In this document: piece by piece, positions 7,420 to 33,451 of the stretch
Position numbering within the stretch: position 1 is the stretch's first letter
How the letters are laid out: every line of letters begins with the position of its first letter
Source: a virus
Lineage: Duplodnaviria; Caudoviricetes
Virus record (IMG/VR): IMGVR_UViG_3300044840_000113
Span: 1 to 37,484 of that record
Length of the DNA: 37,484 nucleotides
Direction: 5' to 3' (one strand)
Notes under the pieces: model-generated
Told to the model about the DNA's origin: nothing
The model's input: the letters and a program-made list of their open reading frames with translations, nothing else
Databases searched by the model: none
Position numbers and translations under genes: made by a program

Positions 7420-8214
7420 TCACGCGTCCAGCATGATCGTCCTCATCTTGCTGATGGCGTCATCCTCGTCGTCCACATCCACAGGGTGGGAAACCTGTTC
7501 GATTGGCAAAAGAACTTGGTCGATGTCTTGGTCACCAAGGATGGACGTGGCGTAGAAGGCGACGAAGCTCTTGGCGGAACCAGCCAGCCTTGCCGCATCC
7601 ATCCGAGTCCTTAGCTCACGGGCGTCCGCTCCGGCTCGCTCACCCATGCGGGAGTGAACGAGATCCATGAGGTGCGGCTGTCCATTGCTGTATGCGAATC
7701 GGAACGACACCTTAGTCAGGGGTCCCGTGTCGGTGTACCGAGCAGGGACCTCGACCTGGCGTTCAGGGGCAACGCCGGCAGCCGTGAGGACCCGCTCAAC
7801 GCTCTCCAGCAGGTGCCCGACACGCGTTTCATGAGGCACCGAGGCCTCTGGGCGTTCCGCTTCGACAACCTCGTGGTACAGACGATCCAGGACCGGCTCC
7901 CAAGGGGGGCGCTCGTCGAGTAGATAGCCACCGAGCAGAGCCGTGTAGTTGCCTGTCCGCTGTTCCTGCATCTGCTCGACACTGGCCCAGTCATCAGCCG
8001 CGGCCTTGCGCCGGAAGTAGTCGACCCAGGTCTTGTACGCCTCGGTGCTGACGTGGACGTGCCGCAGTTTCCTGCCGCTGATCTCGCCGTCGTCTCCCTC
8101 GCCGAGGAACCTTGTCAGCCACCCCTCGGGCGTCTTGAGCAGCACACCGAGGTTACGGGGCTCACGCCGCCGGAGATCCGACATATGCTGCACGAGGTAC
8201 CAGGTCGCCTTCAC
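7420..8214 (-). CDS. DUF3037-like partner of HipA-family kinase
   Basis: N-terminal WYLVQHMSDLRRREPRNLGVLL matches the DUF3037 pattern, and C-terminal FRFAYSNG is typical of these partners; GTGA-coupled to the kinase. Confidence 0.7.
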   Translation of the reverse strand: MKATWYLVQHMSDLRRREPRNLGVLLKTPEGWLTRFLGEGDDGEISGRKLRHVHVSTEAYKTWVDYFRRKAAADDWASVEQMQEQRTGNYTALLGGYLLDERPPWEPVLDRLYHEVVEAERPEASVPHETRVGHLLESVERVLTAAGVAPERQVEVPARYTDTGPLTKVSFRFAYSNGQPHLMDLVHSRMGERAGADARELRTRMDAARLAGSAKSFVAFYATSILGDQDIDQVLLPIEQVSHPVDVDDEDDAISKMRTIMLDA

Positions 8215-8966
8215 TCGTCCTCGCCCTCCTCGTTAGACAGGCCGCCCTCAGCTTGCGCCTTGTCCGGCGGCAATGACAGGGCCGTCAGTTTGTGTATGGC
8301 ACTTTGCCGGTGCACGATGAAATCGAGGAGTTCGGTCGCGAGCGCCGATGAGTAGAGGCCGCGGCGGGCACCTTCGACTGTGATCCTTCGGAGAGCAGAC
8401 CGCGGGACGTTCCGGACCCGTTGGCCCCATGCGTGTAGCCGCTCGGCATCCAGGGGGCAGTTCCGAAAGATGTGCCGATCAACCGGTGCGTCTTTGCACT
8501 GGTCCAGGGCGCCTGGGATGCCAGTCCTACGAAGGCCGAGTGCTTGATCGTGGTCGATAACCCACAGTCCGAGTTTCCGGTGTGAGATGACGTTGTGTTC
8601 GTGTCGGTCCACGTTGAGTATCCAGACGTCGAAGACCAGGACACCTGCCGCTAGATCTGGTTCACGAACAGCGAGAACGGCGGGGTCTTCAGGGGCCGGC
8701 GTCTCGTTGTCGATCCCCACGACGGCCGTGACCCACTGCACCTGCTCGGTGTAGTCACGCCCCAGTTCGCCGGGTGGCACCGGGAGTCCGATGGTGGCGG
8801 CGAGCCGGGCGCAGACGAACTCGTTGGCCACCAGCCAGGGATGGTCTTTCGTGTTGGGTTTGATGTAGACCCGCGCGGTGCCCCAGCAACCCTTGTTGGC
8901 TCCCTCTGTTCCAGGGGCGCCGTATGTCGTGACCGTGATCCCGGGGACGAGGCGTGGTCGGCGCAC
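8211..8966 (-). CDS. HipA-like (HipA_2 / PI3-4K superfamily) Ser/Thr kinase
   Basis: YIKP...ANEFVCARLA..IGLPVP (K/E pair), FDVWILNVDRHEHN (catalytic loop) and VIDH (Mg-binding). Confidence 0.88.
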   Translation of the reverse strand: MRRPRLVPGITVTTYGAPGTEGANKGCWGTARVYIKPNTKDHPWLVANEFVCARLAATIGLPVPPGELGRDYTEQVQWVTAVVGIDNETPAPEDPAVLAVREPDLAAGVLVFDVWILNVDRHEHNVISHRKLGLWVIDHDQALGLRRTGIPGALDQCKDAPVDRHIFRNCPLDAERLHAWGQRVRNVPRSALRRITVEGARRGLYSSALATELLDFIVHRQSAIHKLTALSLPPDKAQAEGGLSNEEGEDE

Positions 8967-9125: not shown

Positions 9126-9968
9126 TCAGCCGCCAGCCGACCTCACGTCAGCGGCGATCCGGGCCAGAAGAGCACGGGCCCGGTCTCCTTCGAGCGCGAC
9201 TGACCACAGTCGGTCGGTGATCAACCGATACAGCGCGACGTCTTCCGGGTCGGTGACCGGCACGTCGGTGTGGTTGACCTCGACGACGACCTCGTTGTCC
9301 AGCATCAGGTGGCCGTGCAGCGCCACCACCGGCAGCCGCTCGTCCAGCGGGATCACGCCGAGGCGCACGGTCGGCAGGCCGGTCAGGTTGGCGATGCGGT
9401 CGAGCTGGCCGACCATGACGGACCGTGCCGCGATCGGGTAGCGCAGCGCAGACTCGCCGACCAGGATCTCCACGGTCTTGGCCGGGTCGTACAGCACCTC
9501 CTGCCGGCGCATCCGCGCCAGCACCGCGGCGTCCAGGTCCGGCGGCGAGCTGTGCATCTCGGCCGCCACCGCGAACAGCGCGCGGGCGTACTCGGCGGTC
9601 TGGACCAAGCCTGGTACGACGAAGAACTCGACTTGGACCAGGTGTGTGGCCGTCCGTTCCCGATCGCCGAGTTCCACCTGGGCAGGCGTATGTCCGGACC
9701 GCAGCCGACGGCGCCAACTGGCACGGGCCAACCGCAGATCCCGCAACCGGTCGCGCATCTCAGCCAGCGTCGCGTCCGGCGCCTGGATGGCCTCCAACCA
9801 GGCGATGACGTCCTCGTCGTCCGGCAGCGTGCGACCGGACTCGATCCGGCTCACCTTCGAGGGCTGCCAGCCGAGCGCGGTCGCGAACTGCTTCCCGGTC
9901 TCGTAACCGGCCCGGATGCGCAGCCGGCGCAGAGCGTCGCCGAACGCCAGCTGCTGCTTCTCGATCAC
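9126..9968 (-). CDS. XRE HTH + DUF5753 transcriptional regulator
   Basis: LRRLRIRAG...WQPSKVSRIESG HTH; VPGLVQTAEYARA, RMRRQEVL and ESALR DUF5753 motifs; GTG start at 9968. Confidence 0.92.
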   Translation of the reverse strand: MIEKQQLAFGDALRRLRIRAGYETGKQFATALGWQPSKVSRIESGRTLPDDEDVIAWLEAIQAPDATLAEMRDRLRDLRLARASWRRRLRSGHTPAQVELGDRERTATHLVQVEFFVVPGLVQTAEYARALFAVAAEMHSSPPDLDAAVLARMRRQEVLYDPAKTVEILVGESALRYPIAARSVMVGQLDRIANLTGLPTVRLGVIPLDERLPVVALHGHLMLDNEVVVEVNHTDVPVTDPEDVALYRLITDRLWSVALEGDRARALLARIAADVRSAGG

Positions 9969-9979
9969 GCGCCCCGGTC

Positions 9980-10492
9980 CTACGTCAGGTGGAGTTCCCG
10001 ATGTTGGACGGCATGGTGCCACACCAGGTCGCGCCACCGGCGATGCTGCGCCACCACGTCCGGCTGCGTCGTCACCTTGACGTCGACCAGGGTGTATTCG
10101 GCGTCGAACCGCATGATCGCGACGCGTTCGTCGTCCACCAGGTAGTAGTCGTACTCGGGCAGCCCAAGGTCACGGGCCACGGACTCATGGACCCAGCGGA
10201 TGTCCTCGCCAGCGTCGATGTTGGCGTCGGTGGTGGTCATCAGCCAGATCAGGTACTCGGTGGCCGGTTCGGTGATCATGCGTACGCGCTGGAACGGGAT
10301 GGCGCGCCGACGCAGGCCGCGGATGTAGTCGTGCCAGGCGATCGTCTCGGTGTCCAGCTCGGACGGCAGGCCAGCGCGCCAGCGGGCCAGCTCTGCCTCG
10401 TCCACCTCGTAATGGCCCTGGCACTCCCAGCGCCACACGCTGCGGGTGACGCTGGCGAACAGGGCGGAGAGCTGGTCGACGGGAAGGGTCAC
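9980..10492 (-). CDS. DUF6879-family protein
   Basis: SVWRWECQGHY, RVRMITEPATEY, NIDAGEDIRW and DYYLVDDERVAIMRF motifs; canonical position upstream of an XRE-DUF5753 gene. Confidence 0.85.
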   Translation of the reverse strand: MTLPVDQLSALFASVTRSVWRWECQGHYEVDEAELARWRAGLPSELDTETIAWHDYIRGLRRRAIPFQRVRMITEPATEYLIWLMTTTDANIDAGEDIRWVHESVARDLGLPEYDYYLVDDERVAIMRFDAEYTLVDVKVTTQPDVVAQHRRWRDLVWHHAVQHRELHLT

Positions 10493-10698
10493 GCCGTGTT
10501 GCCGGGCAGGTACGCCAGCAGGCCGGCAGGGATCTCGACGGCGGTCTCATGGTCCGGCAACCCGCGCTGACGCAGCTCGGCGAGCGCCTCGGGATCGGTG
10601 ACGATCGAGCCCTGCACCACGTAGGTGCCGCGGTCGGTGGCGAACGCGGTCGGGCAGCCGCCGTTCTTGCTGGTCGTGCCGAGGAAAGTCAGCTTCAT
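10489..10698 (-). CDS. Small conserved actinobacterial protein of the XRE/DUF6879 cassette
   Basis: GGAGG RBS; MKLTFLGTTSKNGGCPTAFATDRGTYVVQG...ETAVEIP; GTGA overlap with the DUF6879 gene. Confidence 0.85.
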   Translation of the reverse strand: MKLTFLGTTSKNGGCPTAFATDRGTYVVQGSIVTDPEALAELRQRGLPDHETAVEIPAGLLAYLPGNTA

Positions 10699-28352: not shown

Positions 28353-30083
28353 TTACTGCCCGACGTACGCGGCCGGGCTGATCACCGGTGGCTCGGCCGG
28401 CGTGAGGCCTTCGGGCGGCAGGTCCGGCACGCCGTCGGGTGCCTGGTCGACGTAGTGCGGCACCCACAGCGGGATGTCGTCGGCCTCGGTGTCCACCTCG
28501 GTCGGTTGACCAGCCGCGGCCGGCATCCCGCCCGGCTGACCGATGGTGTCGGGGTTCGCGACGACCATGCCCTTCTCGCCCATGATCCGCTTGACCTCGT
28601 TCTTCTGCTCGTCCGCGGACCAGTCCGGGTGCAGCATCTGCACCATGGTCAGGGTCGACATGGCCTCGGCCTGGCGCAGCGCGAGCAGGCTGGCGGCCAA
28701 CTCGCCGGGGTTCTGCTGAACGACGTCGCCGAACTCGATGTCGGGCCGCAACGGCTGCACGCCCCAGTTGAACGCGGCGTTGCCGACCTTGAGCAGGACC
28801 TGGAACAGGTCGGCCAGCGGCGGCCGGAAGTAGGTGAGCTTCTTCTTCCGGGTGATCAGCGACTTGCGTTCCTTCGCGGAGACCTCGGTGGCGGTCATCG
28901 CGACCTCGCCGGTCAGGCCGAACGTCTGGCCGCTGTAGCCGGCCAGGCCGACGGCCATGGTCATGATCTCCTGGATCGTCTGGGAGTGCTCGGCGACCCG
29001 GATGGCGAACTGCTGGATGGTGATCTGCGGCGGCGTGCCGGGCAGCATCGAGAAGCCCTCGTACGCCTCCTGCTCGGCGTCCCACTGCGCGCCTCGACCC
29101 GGGCCACGGTCGCGCAGGTACTGATCCGGGACGAGTACGCGACCTTTGGCCAGGCGAACATCGCGCATCCAACTGGACATGGTCTCGTCCAGCGCGTCGA
29201 ACAGGCCTTCGACGCCGGCGTAGTCCGACCGTCCGAAGTGGGCACACGCGGGCTGGTTGCGCCACATCCGGTTGGGCCTGATGTTGGGCACGTACACGAC
29301 CGGGAGCTGGTCGATGCCCAGCCGCATGGTCTGGCCGTCGGCCTCGAGCAGGTCGACGAAGTTCTCGGTCTCCGGGTAGTCACCGAGCGGTTGCGGATTG
29401 CCGAGCGCGTCCGGGCCGCCCTTGTAGACGGCCTGCTGCCACACGGCTTCCTGGCCGTCCATCTCGTACCGCTCGAGGTGCCGCACGACGTTGCTGGCGT
29501 CCTGCTTGAGCACCCGCCAGAACGTGACCGCGGAGAGCCGGCCGAACTTCCACTCCGGGACGGCGGCGTCGGCGTGGATGGCGTTGATCCACGGCTTGTC
29601 CGACACCGACTTGTCCCACACCACCCGAAAGTAGACGCCGCCGAGCGCGGCGTTGACCTCGGCGCCCTCGAGCAGCGCGGTGTAGAACTCGTCGTCGACC
29701 AGCTCGTCGAGCTTCTCCTGGGTGGACTCCAGGCCGGCGCCGGCGTTCTCCGGCAGGACCACGTTGGGTGGCTCGGCGAACAGCAGGTCGGCACTGGTCG
29801 ACGCGATGTCCGCGGCGAGCGGGACGTGGATCTTGCTGCGCTTCTCGCCCTGGGGGATCGGCTGGCCCCAGAACCAGCGGGCGAGCGTGCCGACCAGGCC
29901 GCCGCGATACTGCGACGGGCGGGCGTGCGGCCGGTTCGTGACGCGCTGGGAGACCTGCATGTAGAACGCGGCCAGCTCGTCGGGATCGCCGGAGTACCAC
30001 GCGGCCCAGGGCACGAACTTCTCGTAGGCAACCGCAACCGACGTCGGCGGCCACGTCATGTTCCCGCCGGCGGGCAACGGCAC
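28353..30083 (-). CDS. Portal protein (SPP1 gp6/A118-like)
   Basis: HVPLAADIA..SADLLF.E, GRSDY, IRV.EH and TATEV motifs; GGAGG RBS at 30091-30095. Confidence 0.95.
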   Translation of the reverse strand: MPLPAGGNMTWPPTSVAVAYEKFVPWAAWYSGDPDELAAFYMQVSQRVTNRPHARPSQYRGGLVGTLARWFWGQPIPQGEKRSKIHVPLAADIASTSADLLFAEPPNVVLPENAGAGLESTQEKLDELVDDEFYTALLEGAEVNAALGGVYFRVVWDKSVSDKPWINAIHADAAVPEWKFGRLSAVTFWRVLKQDASNVVRHLERYEMDGQEAVWQQAVYKGGPDALGNPQPLGDYPETENFVDLLEADGQTMRLGIDQLPVVYVPNIRPNRMWRNQPACAHFGRSDYAGVEGLFDALDETMSSWMRDVRLAKGRVLVPDQYLRDRGPGRGAQWDAEQEAYEGFSMLPGTPPQITIQQFAIRVAEHSQTIQEIMTMAVGLAGYSGQTFGLTGEVAMTATEVSAKERKSLITRKKKLTYFRPPLADLFQVLLKVGNAAFNWGVQPLRPDIEFGDVVQQNPGELAASLLALRQAEAMSTLTMVQMLHPDWSADEQKNEVKRIMGEKGMVVANPDTIGQPGGMPAAAGQPTEVDTEADDIPLWVPHYVDQAPDGVPDLPPEGLTPAEPPVISPAAYVGQ

Positions 30084-30095
30084 GGTCAGACCTCC

Positions 30096-30152
30096 TGTCT
30101 ACTGGTAGACACATGGACGGAATTGGGCTAGAGTGTCTACCAGTAGACACTC
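30096..30152 (+). promoter_or_regulatory. Promoter with two palindromic operators
   Basis: TGTCTAC-TG-GTAGACA (30096-30111) and GAGTGTCTAC-CA-GTAGACACTC (30131-30152). TAGACA (30106-30111), 17-bp spacer, TAGAGT (30129-30134). Confidence 0.8.
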
Positions 30153-30173: not shown

Positions 30174-30494
30174 ATGAACGGCAGCCGACCGAAGAGGACA
30201 GTTCGTCTCGGCGATGACACGCTCGTCGACTGGGTTTCAGAGCCGGTGTTCGAGTTCGAAACCGAGGTCGACGCGCTGCAGATGTTGCAAGCGCTCAGTG
30301 ATGAGTTGCGAAGCGCGCGCGAACAGGTCCGCCACGCGATGCGTTACATGGGCGCCGCCGTGCAGGCCGCTCGAACGGTCGTCGAGGACGGCCAGCCCGT
30401 CAGCAAGCAGGCGATCATTCGGGAGAGCGGGCTCTCGCGCCGCACGGTCTACGCCATCCTTGGCGAGGAAGAAGCCGTCACGCCTTCTTCCTGA
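30174..30494 (+). CDS. Small protein with C-terminal HTH (resolvase/Hin-like), antisense within the late operon
   Basis: GGAGGG RBS and own promoter; VSKQAIIRESGLSRRTVYAIL HTH. Confidence 0.82.
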   Translation: MNGSRPKRTVRLGDDTLVDWVSEPVFEFETEVDALQMLQALSDELRSAREQVRHAMRYMGAAVQAARTVVEDGQPVSKQAIIRESGLSRRTVYAILGEEEAVTPSS

Positions 30495-30829: not shown

Positions 30830-31363
30830 TCAGACCACCGGCCCGTGCAGTGCCCGCACCAACGCCATCGGCGTGACGTAGCCCGGCCACCGGTGGTCGG
30901 CGAACATCGCCAACCCGGCCCGCCGGTACGCCTCGTCGACGAGCTGGCTACAGATCATGTGCCCGGACGACGCCACGAACCGCCGCAGGCCCGGCACCGG
31001 CAGGTGCAGGCGGTGCGCCGCGAGCGCGAAGTAGTCGGCCGCGCTGTACGGCACACCCTCGAGCGACCGTCCGGCGGCCACGATCGCAGCCCGCTCGGCG
31101 TCGGTCAGCGGCCAGTCCGACCACACCACGTTCGTGCCGTCATACTCGCTGACCGGTCGGATGCGCGCGCCACCCGGCTCGGCCTCGATGAGCTCGCCGC
31201 TGGGCAGCACCAACACCGCGTGCTGATAGGCGGTCCTGCGTTCGGGCAGCGCGGGATCTGGCGTTGCATCCCAGCCGTCCCCGTTGAGCAACTGTCCAAA
31301 GCGGATCAGTCGGCCGACCTCGCCGGAGATCGCGACGAGGCCGAAGTCGCCTGGCTTGGGCAT
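30830..31363 (-). CDS. Permuted papain-like NlpC/P60 (YiiX/YebB-like) amidase/peptidase
   Basis: PGDF, YQHAVLV (His), EAEPGG, G.PYS and ICSQLV..AY..AG (Cys after His). ATG 31363 is best spaced from GGAGG; GTG 31369 is an alternative start. Confidence 0.88.
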   Translation of the reverse strand: MPKPGDFGLVAISGEVGRLIRFGQLLNGDGWDATPDPALPERRTAYQHAVLVLPSGELIEAEPGGARIRPVSEYDGTNVVWSDWPLTDAERAAIVAAGRSLEGVPYSAADYFALAAHRLHLPVPGLRRFVASSGHMICSQLVDEAYRRAGLAMFADHRWPGYVTPMALVRALHGPVV

Positions 31364-31365
31364 CG

Positions 31366-31635
31366 TCACCTCCTCGTACCGCTCAGCGTGATCCGCGGCT
31401 GATTGCGCGCCAGGCGCTCGGCCAGCGTGCGGTCGCGCTCGGGATAGGTGACGACGTCGGCCTCGTCTACTTCGGCCTTGACAAGCCCGTTGACGTCGAC
31501 GCCGACGGCCTGTAGCTCGTGGATCGTGGCCGCGACGATGTCGGTGCAGTCGGGGTTGCCGGTGATGCGCCGCACACGTCGGGCCAGCATGTCGACCAGC
31601 TCGTCGCCGTTGAGGTACCGCCGGCGCTGGGCCAT
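31366..31635 (-). CDS. Hypothetical protein (89 aa)
   Basis: TGATG overlap with the acb2-like gene; high GC3. Confidence 0.7.
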   Translation of the reverse strand: MAQRRRYLNGDELVDMLARRVRRITGNPDCTDIVAATIHELQAVGVDVNGLVKAEVDEADVVTYPERDRTLAERLARNQPRITLSGTRR

Positions 31636-31889
31636 CAGAACCTGTTCTCCGGCTGGGCGATGGCGCGCACCAGTTCCATGTAGCCCAGCTCCAGCAGCAT
31701 CCGCGCGGTGCGCATACGGTCCGGGTCGATCGGGACGGAAACCGCGTGGTTCTCTGGCTCGTACTCCAGCACCTGGCGCCACAGGACGCCGGTCTGTTCT
31801 TCGCTGGCCTTGACCTGGTTCATCAGGTCGATGGCTTCCTGCGGCAGGTCGCGGTAGCCCTTGATCTGCTTGTGCTGGTTGTCAACCAT
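31635..31889 (-). CDS. acb2: Acb2-family anti-CBASS cyclic oligonucleotide sponge
   Basis: 84 aa from ATG 31889 (GGAGG RBS, TGATG overlap): MVDNQHKQIKGYRDLPQEAIDLMNQVK...GYMELVRAIAQPENRF matches the termini of Pseudomonas phage Acb2 as I recall them (DNQHKKIKGYRDL...RAIAQP). Confidence 0.88.
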   Translation of the reverse strand: MVDNQHKQIKGYRDLPQEAIDLMNQVKASEEQTGVLWRQVLEYEPENHAVSVPIDPDRMRTARMLLELGYMELVRAIAQPENRF

Positions 31890-32128
31890 CAGGCGCTGAC
31901 CTCCTGCTCGACCTTGGTGAAGTCGAGGTAGTAGTCCTGCCCCAGCTCGAACTGTGCCGCCGGATTGTCGACGGTGATCTCGACGCTGCCGCTCGGCGTG
32001 GCCTTCGCGAACCGCTGGTCCTCGGGCAGGCTGGCGTCGTACATGGCCTGGAACCGGATGGTCCTCGATCCTTCCTGGCCATAGGCGGATCGCGTCTCGG
32101 AGATGCACTTGAACTTGGCGCGGATCAT
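31889..32128 (-). CDS. Conserved small phage protein (RAKF...F.KATPSG...DNPAA...YY.DF family)
   Basis: 79 aa, beta-rich, AAGGGA RBS; translationally coupled to the acb2-like gene. Confidence 0.8.
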   Translation of the reverse strand: MIRAKFKCISETRSAYGQEGSRTIRFQAMYDASLPEDQRFAKATPSGSVEITVDNPAAQFELGQDYYLDFTKVEQEVSA

Positions 32129-32143: not shown

Positions 32144-33451
32144 TTATGCGGCCAAGGCCCAGTCGAGCTGGGAGCGCCAGGCGAACTCGGTGGTCTTGAG
32201 CACGTACCGGCCGGCGTCCAGCGAGTGGTCGTCGGCCTTGATCGGCTTGTCCTCGCCTGCCGCGGCTGCCTTGTCGTCCCAGGCGTAGCCGCCGACCTCT
32301 TCGATCCAGCCGGTGCAGGATCCGCGAACGAGCAGCAGGTCGTTGGCCAGGAGGCTGGACACGAGCCGGATGCCGTCGATGACGCTGTTGTCGGCCAGGG
32401 TCGGCGTGAGGCCGTCGTGGTAAAGCTGGTTGACGAACGACGCGGCCGACGGGTCGACGACGGTCCACTCTGGCCGCACGCCGCGTTGGCCGGGTCCGGT
32501 AGCGAAGTCGCTGAGCCAGTCGCGGAGTCGCCGGCTGTACTCGAGGTCGGTGAGCTGGCGGCGTTGGGCGCGGCTGTCGTAGCGGTACTCGCCGGCCAGG
32601 TACAGGCGGGTGCGTTCGACCGGGTCGTTCGGTGCGGGACCTTGGCCGACGCCCAGGAGCAGGCCTGCGAACGGGTTGACGGTGCCGTAGTCCACGCCCA
32701 GCCCGACCCAGCGGTGGATCGGGGGCAGGATGTCGACCACGTGCCGGTCGGGATCCCACATGTCGTAGACGGCGCCCTCGGCCTGCACCCACTGGCCCAG
32801 GACGAAGCGGCGGTACCACAGCCCGGTGTAGGTCGTTTTCAGCCATGCGACGTAGCTGGGGTCGAGGTGCGGGTTGTCGTCGATGGTGAAGTGCCACGTC
32901 GCCAGCTCGGTCTGCTTGGCGCGGAGCAGGTACTCCTTGCGCAACCAATGCCCCGGGTTGTCGGGGTTCGTCGTGCCGAAGATCTTGGCGCCGGGGACTG
33001 AGCATCGAGCGACGAGCATGTCGAAGAACGAGCGCGGCAGGACGGTGATCTCGTCGACGTAGGCGCCGCAGACGGTCATGCCGCGGATCTTCGATTCGGC
33101 TTTGGCGTCGTTGGCGCCGATGACGTGCACGGTGCGGCCGAAGATGATGGCTTCTGACGCGCCGGGGTTGTAGTGGACCTGCTTGGCGAACATGCCGAAC
33201 AGGTTGGGGTTCATGAGGGGCGCGAACAGGTTGCGGTTGATCGTCTCGCGGGTCTTGCCGATGATGACCAGCTCGCCGTCGGGCGGCGGGTTGGCCACGA
33301 AGATCAGGAAGCGGAGCAGCGAGGCGATGGTCTTGCCGGACCGGATTGATCCTTCCCAGATGTTGATCCGCTGCTGGGACTCGACGACGGAACGGATCTG
33401 TGCCGGGCTGAGGATCTTCTTGACTACGTCGAGGTCAATCCGCGCTGTCAT
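32144..33451 (-). CDS. terL: Terminase large subunit (PBSX-like)
   Basis: Walker A GSIRSGKT, Walker B AYVDE, TTNPD, nuclease GVDYG and DDHSLDAGRY motifs. Confidence 0.96.
   Translation of the reverse strand: MTARIDLDVVKKILSPAQIRSVVESQQRINIWEGSIRSGKTIASLLRFLIFVANPPPDGELVIIGKTRETINRNLFAPLMNPNLFGMFAKQVHYNPGASEAIIFGRTVHVIGANDAKAESKIRGMTVCGAYVDEITVLPRSFFDMLVARCSVPGAKIFGTTNPDNPGHWLRKEYLLRAKQTELATWHFTIDDNPHLDPSYVAWLKTTYTGLWYRRFVLGQWVQAEGAVYDMWDPDRHVVDILPPIHRWVGLGVDYGTVNPFAGLLLGVGQGPAPNDPVERTRLYLAGEYRYDSRAQRRQLTDLEYSRRLRDWLSDFATGPGQRGVRPEWTVVDPSAASFVNQLYHDGLTPTLADNSVIDGIRLVSSLLANDLLLVRGSCTGWIEEVGGYAWDDKAAAAGEDKPIKADDHSLDAGRYVLKTTEFAWRSQLDWALAA

Follow-up and report, generated by a model that had tools for sequence, protein, structure and literature searches.

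The 37,484-base window analysed here is the complete IMG/VR record IMGVR_UViG_3300044840_000113 of a virus of the Caudoviricetes, and it encodes on its minus strand (31889-32128) a protein of 79 amino acids (aa) that probably intercepts an immune nucleotide and so counters bacterial nucleotide-signalling immunity. Quite possibly this protein is a sponge, i.e. it would bind and sequester the signal; that it is a signal-cleaving enzyme of the Acb5 or RyDEP kind, a reading suggested by analogy, is unlikely. The family to which the gene belongs is referred to as X. A preliminary description, made from the sequence alone, had proposed a small oligomeric nucleotide-signal binder or another immune antagonist for this open reading frame (ORF). 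The ORF was confirmed with its sequence as quoted, and the functional proposal is favoured by fusions of X to recognised sponge domains and by predicted self-association, and weakly by gene neighbourhood.

Fusions to known sponge domains

A search for fusions among proteins of 164-2,000 aa (7,989 candidates scored) returned 55 X homologues, 14 of which have a Pfam domain scoring above the cut-off and 41 none. In 13 of the 14 this domain is a recognised sponge, the labelled partners being Tad2 (nine proteins), Acb4 (three), Acb2/Tad1 (one, at 27.5 bits against a cut-off of 27) and an NT5C nucleotidase (one), and the association with Acb2/Tad1, Tad2 and Acb4 for which the preliminary description had suggested looking was thereby found. 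One extra Acb2-X fusion (P0246; Acb2/Tad1 E-value 2.7e-5, under the cut-off) occurs among 40 long representatives of the profile search. The in-frame partners of the X domain represent three unrelated sponge folds, and X may precede or follow its partner; X is also tandem-duplicated.

Judged by partner and order, at least six fusion events have taken place (X-Tad2 twice, Acb4-X, X-Acb4, X-Acb2/Tad1 and Acb2-X). The two X-Tad2 events are represented by a clade of eight proteins and by P0143, which lies in a subfamily with support 100, and a quick, mostly unresolved tree of 97 rows places the fusions in different parts, in agreement with multiple events. X-Tad2 persists in eight proteins, and the seven that were aligned show 62-77% identity to the first; one cluster has eight members. 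By comparison, one of the 252 neighbouring genes scanned in the first locus set is a sponge. At locus L143 a split form, in which X is followed by the start of a separate acb4 gene (truncated where the contig stops; local hidden Markov model (HMM) E-value 1e-4), resembles the fused protein P0115.

Partner domains without a Pfam label were assigned by eye, and the supplementary tables of Tal et al. (10.1101/2025.07.12.664507) were searched by motif, the yes/no columns of their screen being interpreted by means of the LockinA row. A domain with the motif YxCHK...DGY, for which there is no Pfam model, is fused to X in 8 of the 55 long homologues (P0103, P0105, P0106, P0108, P0119, P0121, P0123 and P0131) and in these tables also to Lockin and Sequestin; it stands alone at L070:5825-6082, two genes from X. 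Further recurrent partners are a GRIVHY-type domain and a small helical hairpin of 45-50 residues (PHROG 20502), which is fused to X in several clades (P0130, P0136, P0139, P0162 and P0166), adjoins it at L013:5231-5431, and by eye resembles a cut-down RyR domain. Partners that are nucleotide-related or of unknown nature include the NT5C fusion (P0125) and two adjacent genes, one HAD-like (PHROG 1238; L006:5352-5726) and one with a WDGH domain (L086:3604-3975).

Predicted structure and self-association

The model of the 79-aa protein consists of four strands and one short helix (predicted local distance difference test score, pLDDT, 80.5), in line with the beta-rich character ascribed to it earlier. 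Oligomer modelling likewise supports self-association: the four-copy model has an interaction score (ipSAE) of 0.70, against 0.00 for the best of three controls, with at least 88% of contacts in agreement between runs and a partner pLDDT of at least 74. An ipSAE this high is also seen in 20 of 30 solved homodimers, as opposed to 1 of 23 monomers; these counts apply only roughly to four copies, and the four-copy score may derive from the dimer by itself.

A tandem X protein gave a pLDDT of 92.8 and a predicted template modelling score (pTM) of 0.84, and natural tandem repeats exist. In the tandem and dimer models two X copies are predicted to form an eight-stranded antiparallel barrel of the oligonucleotide/oligosaccharide-binding (OB) type, similar to Rpb8. 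The modelled two-fold axis lies at D69-D69' and V49-V49', and the interface holds the helix 36-42 together with strand 4; among its predicted residues are K5, E36, D37, F40, N55, Y67 and D69, with R3 and T44 lying outside. The best fold matches are Rpb8/Rpo8 subunits (PDB 7ok0_G, 7eu0_H, 3h0g_H and 5x4z_H) at 7-10% identity. Solved or predicted viral structures gave no match at an E-value of 0.001 or better, the Lockin hexamer is not among the listed fold matches, and the X profile has no sequence match in PDB.

Family size, spread and conservation

The protein matches PHROG 6978 (unknown function; E-value 1e-13), with no match in Pfam at an E-value of 0.1 or better and none in NCBIfam. A profile search recovered 5,558 X clusters (50% identity) at E-values up to 0.001 and 2,795 at 1e-10, and in the ESM Atlas the nearest cluster comprises 1,466 members, 80% of them viral, without a Pfam domain. 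Hosts of 36 genome loci with X include Actinomycetota, Rhizobiales, Burkholderia, Bacteroidota, Planctomycetota and Gemmatimonadota. Most members are short (at most 105 aa in 110 of the best 150 representatives).

The conserved aromatic and basic residues of the preliminary description are real: in 209 short homologues R3, K5, P45 and an aromatic residue at position 40 are fully conserved (each 1.00), followed by D69 (0.99), N55 (0.97), E36 and Y67 (0.96 each) and T44 (0.95), and G47 and G63 likewise fall in the range of 93-99%. The same alignment contains no conserved catalytic histidine, and the loops connecting strands 1-2 and 2-3 differ widely from one subfamily to another. Net charge is -3 for the 79-aa protein and -2 as the family median. 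To judge from the sequences, invariant polar residues and negative charge would be more in keeping with a confined site than with general DNA binding.

The gene, its coupling to acb2 and the cargo slot

Several small genes, with the 79-aa gene at their head, lie between the terminase large subunit (32144-33451, minus strand), the upstream border of the cargo slot, and the portal protein (28353-30083, minus strand), its downstream border. The 79-aa gene starts 15 nt past the terminase stop with GAAGGGA directly before the ATG, and the GC content at its third codon positions (GC3, 0.92) is similar to that of adjacent genes. A TGATG overlap, present as described earlier, joins its stop to the start of the next gene (31635-31889, minus strand), the product of which (84 aa) is indeed a sponge homologue, namely Acb2 (PF24729, E-value 8.7e-9; PDB p26/Acb2 8h2j, E-value 7e-11). 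In the alignment with 8h2j this homologue retains Y11 and K26 (here Y12 and K27), which bind cyclic dinucleotides according to the accessible part of the Acb2 study (PMC10312549), and lacks T74 of the trinucleotide pocket. The acb2 gene is in turn coupled through TGATG to an 89-aa gene of no known family (31366-31635, minus strand), beyond which a 177-aa gene in the same slot (30830-31363, minus strand; PHROG 1128, E-value 2e-20) is conserved in the relatives L001 and L002. Such coupling is ordinary in the late operon of this genome and by itself says little about function.

In the four relatives L001-L004 the 79-aa gene stays after the terminase and the following gene differs: acb2 occupies this place in the window and in L001, L002 and L004 have a GRIVHY-family gene there, and L003 has a 58-aa gene. 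Since the 79-aa gene is constant and its successor changes, the locus is a cargo slot and not a fixed two-gene system. The L001 gene after acb2 (L001:5494-5763) has a start containing RRRY in common with the 89-aa gene of the window, and the ends are similar; its middle gave a weak RyR-domain match (E-value 2e-5, under the cut-off), so that the sequence order in L001 may be X-Acb2-RyR-like. An anti-Thoeris function has recently been described for phage RyR domains (PMC13232231).

The window also contains integrase, primase-helicase, lysis, tail and head genes. The nearest relatives of the 79-aa gene in named genomes are from Pseudonocardiaceae, Streptomyces and Amycolatopsis, from which we infer that the host is an actinomycete. 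A 106-aa helix-turn-helix gene (30174-30494, plus strand) with a sigma-70-like site (30106-30134) lies on the opposite strand within the late operon. At 7420-8966 (minus strand) there is a two-gene insert of low GC3 (0.73-0.75), consisting of a HipA-like kinase (PF20613, E-value 1.6e-8) and a 264-aa gene without a Pfam match, possibly a prophage-borne defence or toxin-antitoxin pair. An XRE-DUF5753 regulator, a DUF6879 gene and a 69-aa gene (9126-10698, minus strand) are inserted between the early genes and the lysis module.

Gene neighbourhood of the family

Of 201 loci fetched, X was located in 200, which collapsed to 165 groups; genes were called by our own script, which may miss some. The positions of X are unrelated (the lysin/holin, Mu gp45/gp46 and scaffold/capsid gaps, or beside terminase, portal or ParB), and a lysin-type domain adjoins it in 11 of 66 locus groups of the first set. 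Pfam scans covered 252 near neighbours in this set, 149 of 170 small ones in the second, and 104 of 124, among which Acb2/Tad1 was found once (L001, the window's own lineage), never and twice, respectively, the last two being L172 from Actinomadura (E-value 4e-23) and L177 from Gemmatimonadaceae (E-value 7e-6). Outside the window's own lineage a recognised sponge gene is adjacent to X in 3 of 164 locus groups. HMMs built from fusion partners only gave seven independent matches in the 165 groups, all seven no more than 700 bp from X, a span that makes up 18% of the flank (p ~7e-6).

The small gene most often found near X is of the GRIVHY-type family (PHROG 2293/19300), which also occurs in one fusion with X (P0090). 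It lies about 600 bp or less from X at L002, L003, L004, L011, L013, L015, L016, L018, L068 and L173, and all ten matches in X loci are at most two genes away. A gene of the RKLLEAKD family (PHROG 5120/1761) directly follows X at L005:5231-5554, L023:5231-5494 and L161:4222-4506. PF24729 occurs in 14-35% of the members of RKLLEAKD atlas clusters, and the family is fused to Sequestin in 22 table rows; its members are likely divergent Acb2/Tad1 hairpins and a candidate sponge.

Two kinds of non-coding elements were observed near X. A GC-rich leader hairpin stands about 50 nt upstream, before a strong ribosome-binding site, at L120, L125, L157, L156, L152, L052, L039, L040 and L069; these loci are rhizobial-type with differing gene contexts, a compensatory change occurs in one of six pairs, and the hairpin is not family-wide. 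At L084 and L088 inverted copies of a 28-nt palindromic repeat flank X on both sides, which is suggestive of a repetitive extragenic palindromic (REP)-like element at the insertion.

Proposed mechanism

In the proposed mechanism the predicted symmetric dimer, possibly a tetramer, would capture an alarm nucleotide at a conserved inter-subunit surface, most likely so as to sequester it. R3 and K5 would hold the phosphates, the aromatic residue 40 and Y67 would stack the base, and E36, N or D37, T44, N55 and D69 would read the base or ribose. Produced late and abundantly, it would reduce the amount of free signal and thereby keep an effector of the CBASS, Thoeris or Pycsar type off until progeny release, and in the phage of the window it may complement Acb2 with a second specificity.

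A wider proposal, which we regard as doubtful when taken as a whole, is that X is among the largest unrecognised interceptor families of phages, with a two-chain Rpb8/Rpo8 barrel as a fold of no known sponge, that it traps a widespread immune nucleotide for which there is no sponge yet, and that its homodimeric half-barrel is a model for the origin of Rpb8. If true, X would have been retained from actinomycetes to Bacteroidota and Planctomycetota because of the widespread nucleotide that it traps, its bound ligand would expose that immune signal, and its homodimer would be an extant model of the half-barrel that could have given rise to Rpb8. Sponge activity, if real, would add a new fold to the seven characterised families counted in an October 2026 review (PMC13712596) and may lead to an immune signal not yet known, above all in actinomycetes. 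Independently of this, the similarity of the predicted X dimer to Rpb8/Rpo8 offers a clue to how a polymerase subunit may have originated.

Weighing of alternatives

Several observations weigh against interception. Fusions are rare: the family comprises at least 5,558 clusters, against which stand 13 fused proteins, and of the 55 long forms 41 lack a Pfam domain. The fusions could be tolerated accidents between small genes in common late cargo slots. The X motifs YLDF, YVDF, RAKM and ATPSG are absent from the Sequestin and Lockin homologue tables of Tal et al. (two RAKF matches are Sequestins), in which a motif search likewise revealed no fusion of X to Sequestin or Lockin. Two partner families that are sponge-like by structure were negative in the published screen (seven RKLLEAKD proteins, one per row, and one GRIVHY row, a hexamer candidate). 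The three adjacent sponges, where 0.2-0.4 were expected, correspond to p 0.001-0.007, but p rises to 0.08 when the background is set to its upper bound; none of the 149 small neighbours of the second set is a sponge, none of 75 Tad2 loci has X within 2.5 kb, and 50 whole records (2.40 Mb) with three Acb2/Tad1, one Tad2 and no Acb4 matches have no sponge gene within 5 kb of X, the nearest being 5.7 kb away. The seven-of-seven proximity result was not blind, because the GRIVHY and small-hairpin families were already known as neighbours when chosen. Finally, Rpb8/Rpo8, the closest fold, is a polymerase subunit for which a single-stranded DNA-binding surface has been described (PMC2675907), and no ligand sponge. 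From the neighbourhood counts the link between X and sponges is therefore specific but infrequent, which leaves the neighbourhood part of the earlier proposal weakly positive.

As far as the available preprint text goes, the sponge search by fusion of Tal et al. used Pfam families only, and X, having no Pfam model, falls outside such sets. No X motif occurs in any of their tables, of the Acb5 table among the rows listed, and X was therefore not included in the published screen. Given its 5,558 clusters, the lack of a Pfam model and this absence, X is a large family for which a test with one 75-aa gene would be cheap and direct.

An unlikely alternative is a late accessory protein without an immune role (in lysis timing, as an assembly helper, or as a housekeeping nucleotide or oxyanion binder like the Mop molbindins), its sponge fusions being accidents in shared cargo slots. 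Such accidents would not select sponge domains in 13 of 14 cases, nor retain one fusion over 25-40% divergence, and X has neither related positions between phages nor a fixed partner gene. The Rpb8-like OB barrel would also suit a binder of single-stranded nucleic acid that protects or handles the late RNA or DNA of the phage, e.g. by concealing a trigger from the sensors of the host or by making late mRNA more stable; this is improbable in view of the negative family charge, of only two fixed basic residues, which stand next to the fixed acids E36 and D69, and of 55 long forms without any replication, nuclease or DNA-binding Pfam fusion. Binding of a host sensor or effector instead of the signal, as by Tad3-Tad8, would explain sponge fusions and stand-alone insertion equally well, and the variable 1-2 and 2-3 loops are what target contacts might produce. 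Yet the same polar residues are near-invariant across phyla, which suggests a chemically constant ligand and not fast-evolving protein targets, and the fusion partners are themselves sponges in the literature as far as accessible, so that we consider a host-protein binder quite improbable. A virion or packaging component of the head module, to which the position between terminase and portal here and in L001-L004 would point, is very unlikely, because X stands at unrelated positions in different phages, most relatives carrying it elsewhere, and only 4 of 50,697 isolated-phage records contain a close relative (tblastn), apart from the lack of viral structure matches noted above.

Comparison with known systems

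Size, oligomerisation and fusion are the sponge criteria in the available text of Tal et al. Phage sponges are short stand-alone proteins, often of fewer than 100 aa, as is the 79-aa X member; they are homo-oligomers, as X is predicted to be; and they are fused to known sponge domains, as are 13 of the 14 Pfam-labelled long X homologues. A deep, positively charged pocket between protomers, and binding of an immune signal that leaves it uncleaved and cancels the defence, are further marks of the class. A literature search that did not reach the Science version of Tal et al. or the bioRxiv supplements found no description of the X family.

With Sequestin (PF21825), which according to the same preprint text was found via Tad2 and Acb4 fusions (60 and 91 in Pfam), X shares a short, mostly stand-alone phage protein and the same two partners; Sequestin is a dimer or tetramer with pockets between protomers. 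Unlike the alpha-helical Sequestin, X is a predicted beta barrel without a Pfam model and with 13-14 fusions. Lockin, as far as described there, is likewise a small beta-rich phage oligomer without domain annotation, binding signals of the ADP-ribose (ADPR) type between protomers, but forms a cog-like hexamer, whereas the X model is a two-fold barrel; LockinA (97 aa) has no motif in common with X, and no X motif occurs in the Lockin table. Acb2/Tad1 (PF24729), Tad2 (PF11195) and Acb4 (PF13876) are fusion partners and occasional neighbours of X; the 79-aa protein matches none of their Pfam profiles, nor that of Sequestin, and hhalign against the neighbouring Acb2 gave a probability of 0.2%.

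Acb5 and RyDEP are small phage proteins that are sponge-like in size and pocket, yet cleave the signal (accessible parts of 10.1101/2025.07.12.664507 and PMC13232231). The fixed E, D, T and N residues of X would be compatible with cleavage too; the sequences are unrelated to X (Acb5A/B rows compared), and no X motif occurs among the rows listed in the Acb5 table. In archaea and eukaryotes Rpb8/Rpo8 is a single chain that attaches to the largest subunit of the polymerase, whereas X is a phage protein of half that size with a barrel predicted from two chains; sequence homology was not detected at 7-10% identity and without a Pfam match. The Mop/TOBE molbindins (MopII 1gug, ModG, ModE DiMop) form small oligomers of the OB type in which oxyanions are bound between the subunits, and tandem repeats of them exist as well. 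The predicted X assembly may resemble them in this; X does not match the TOBE profile. If the proposed interception holds, X works like Sequestin, Lockin or Acb4 and belongs to a family distinct from all three.
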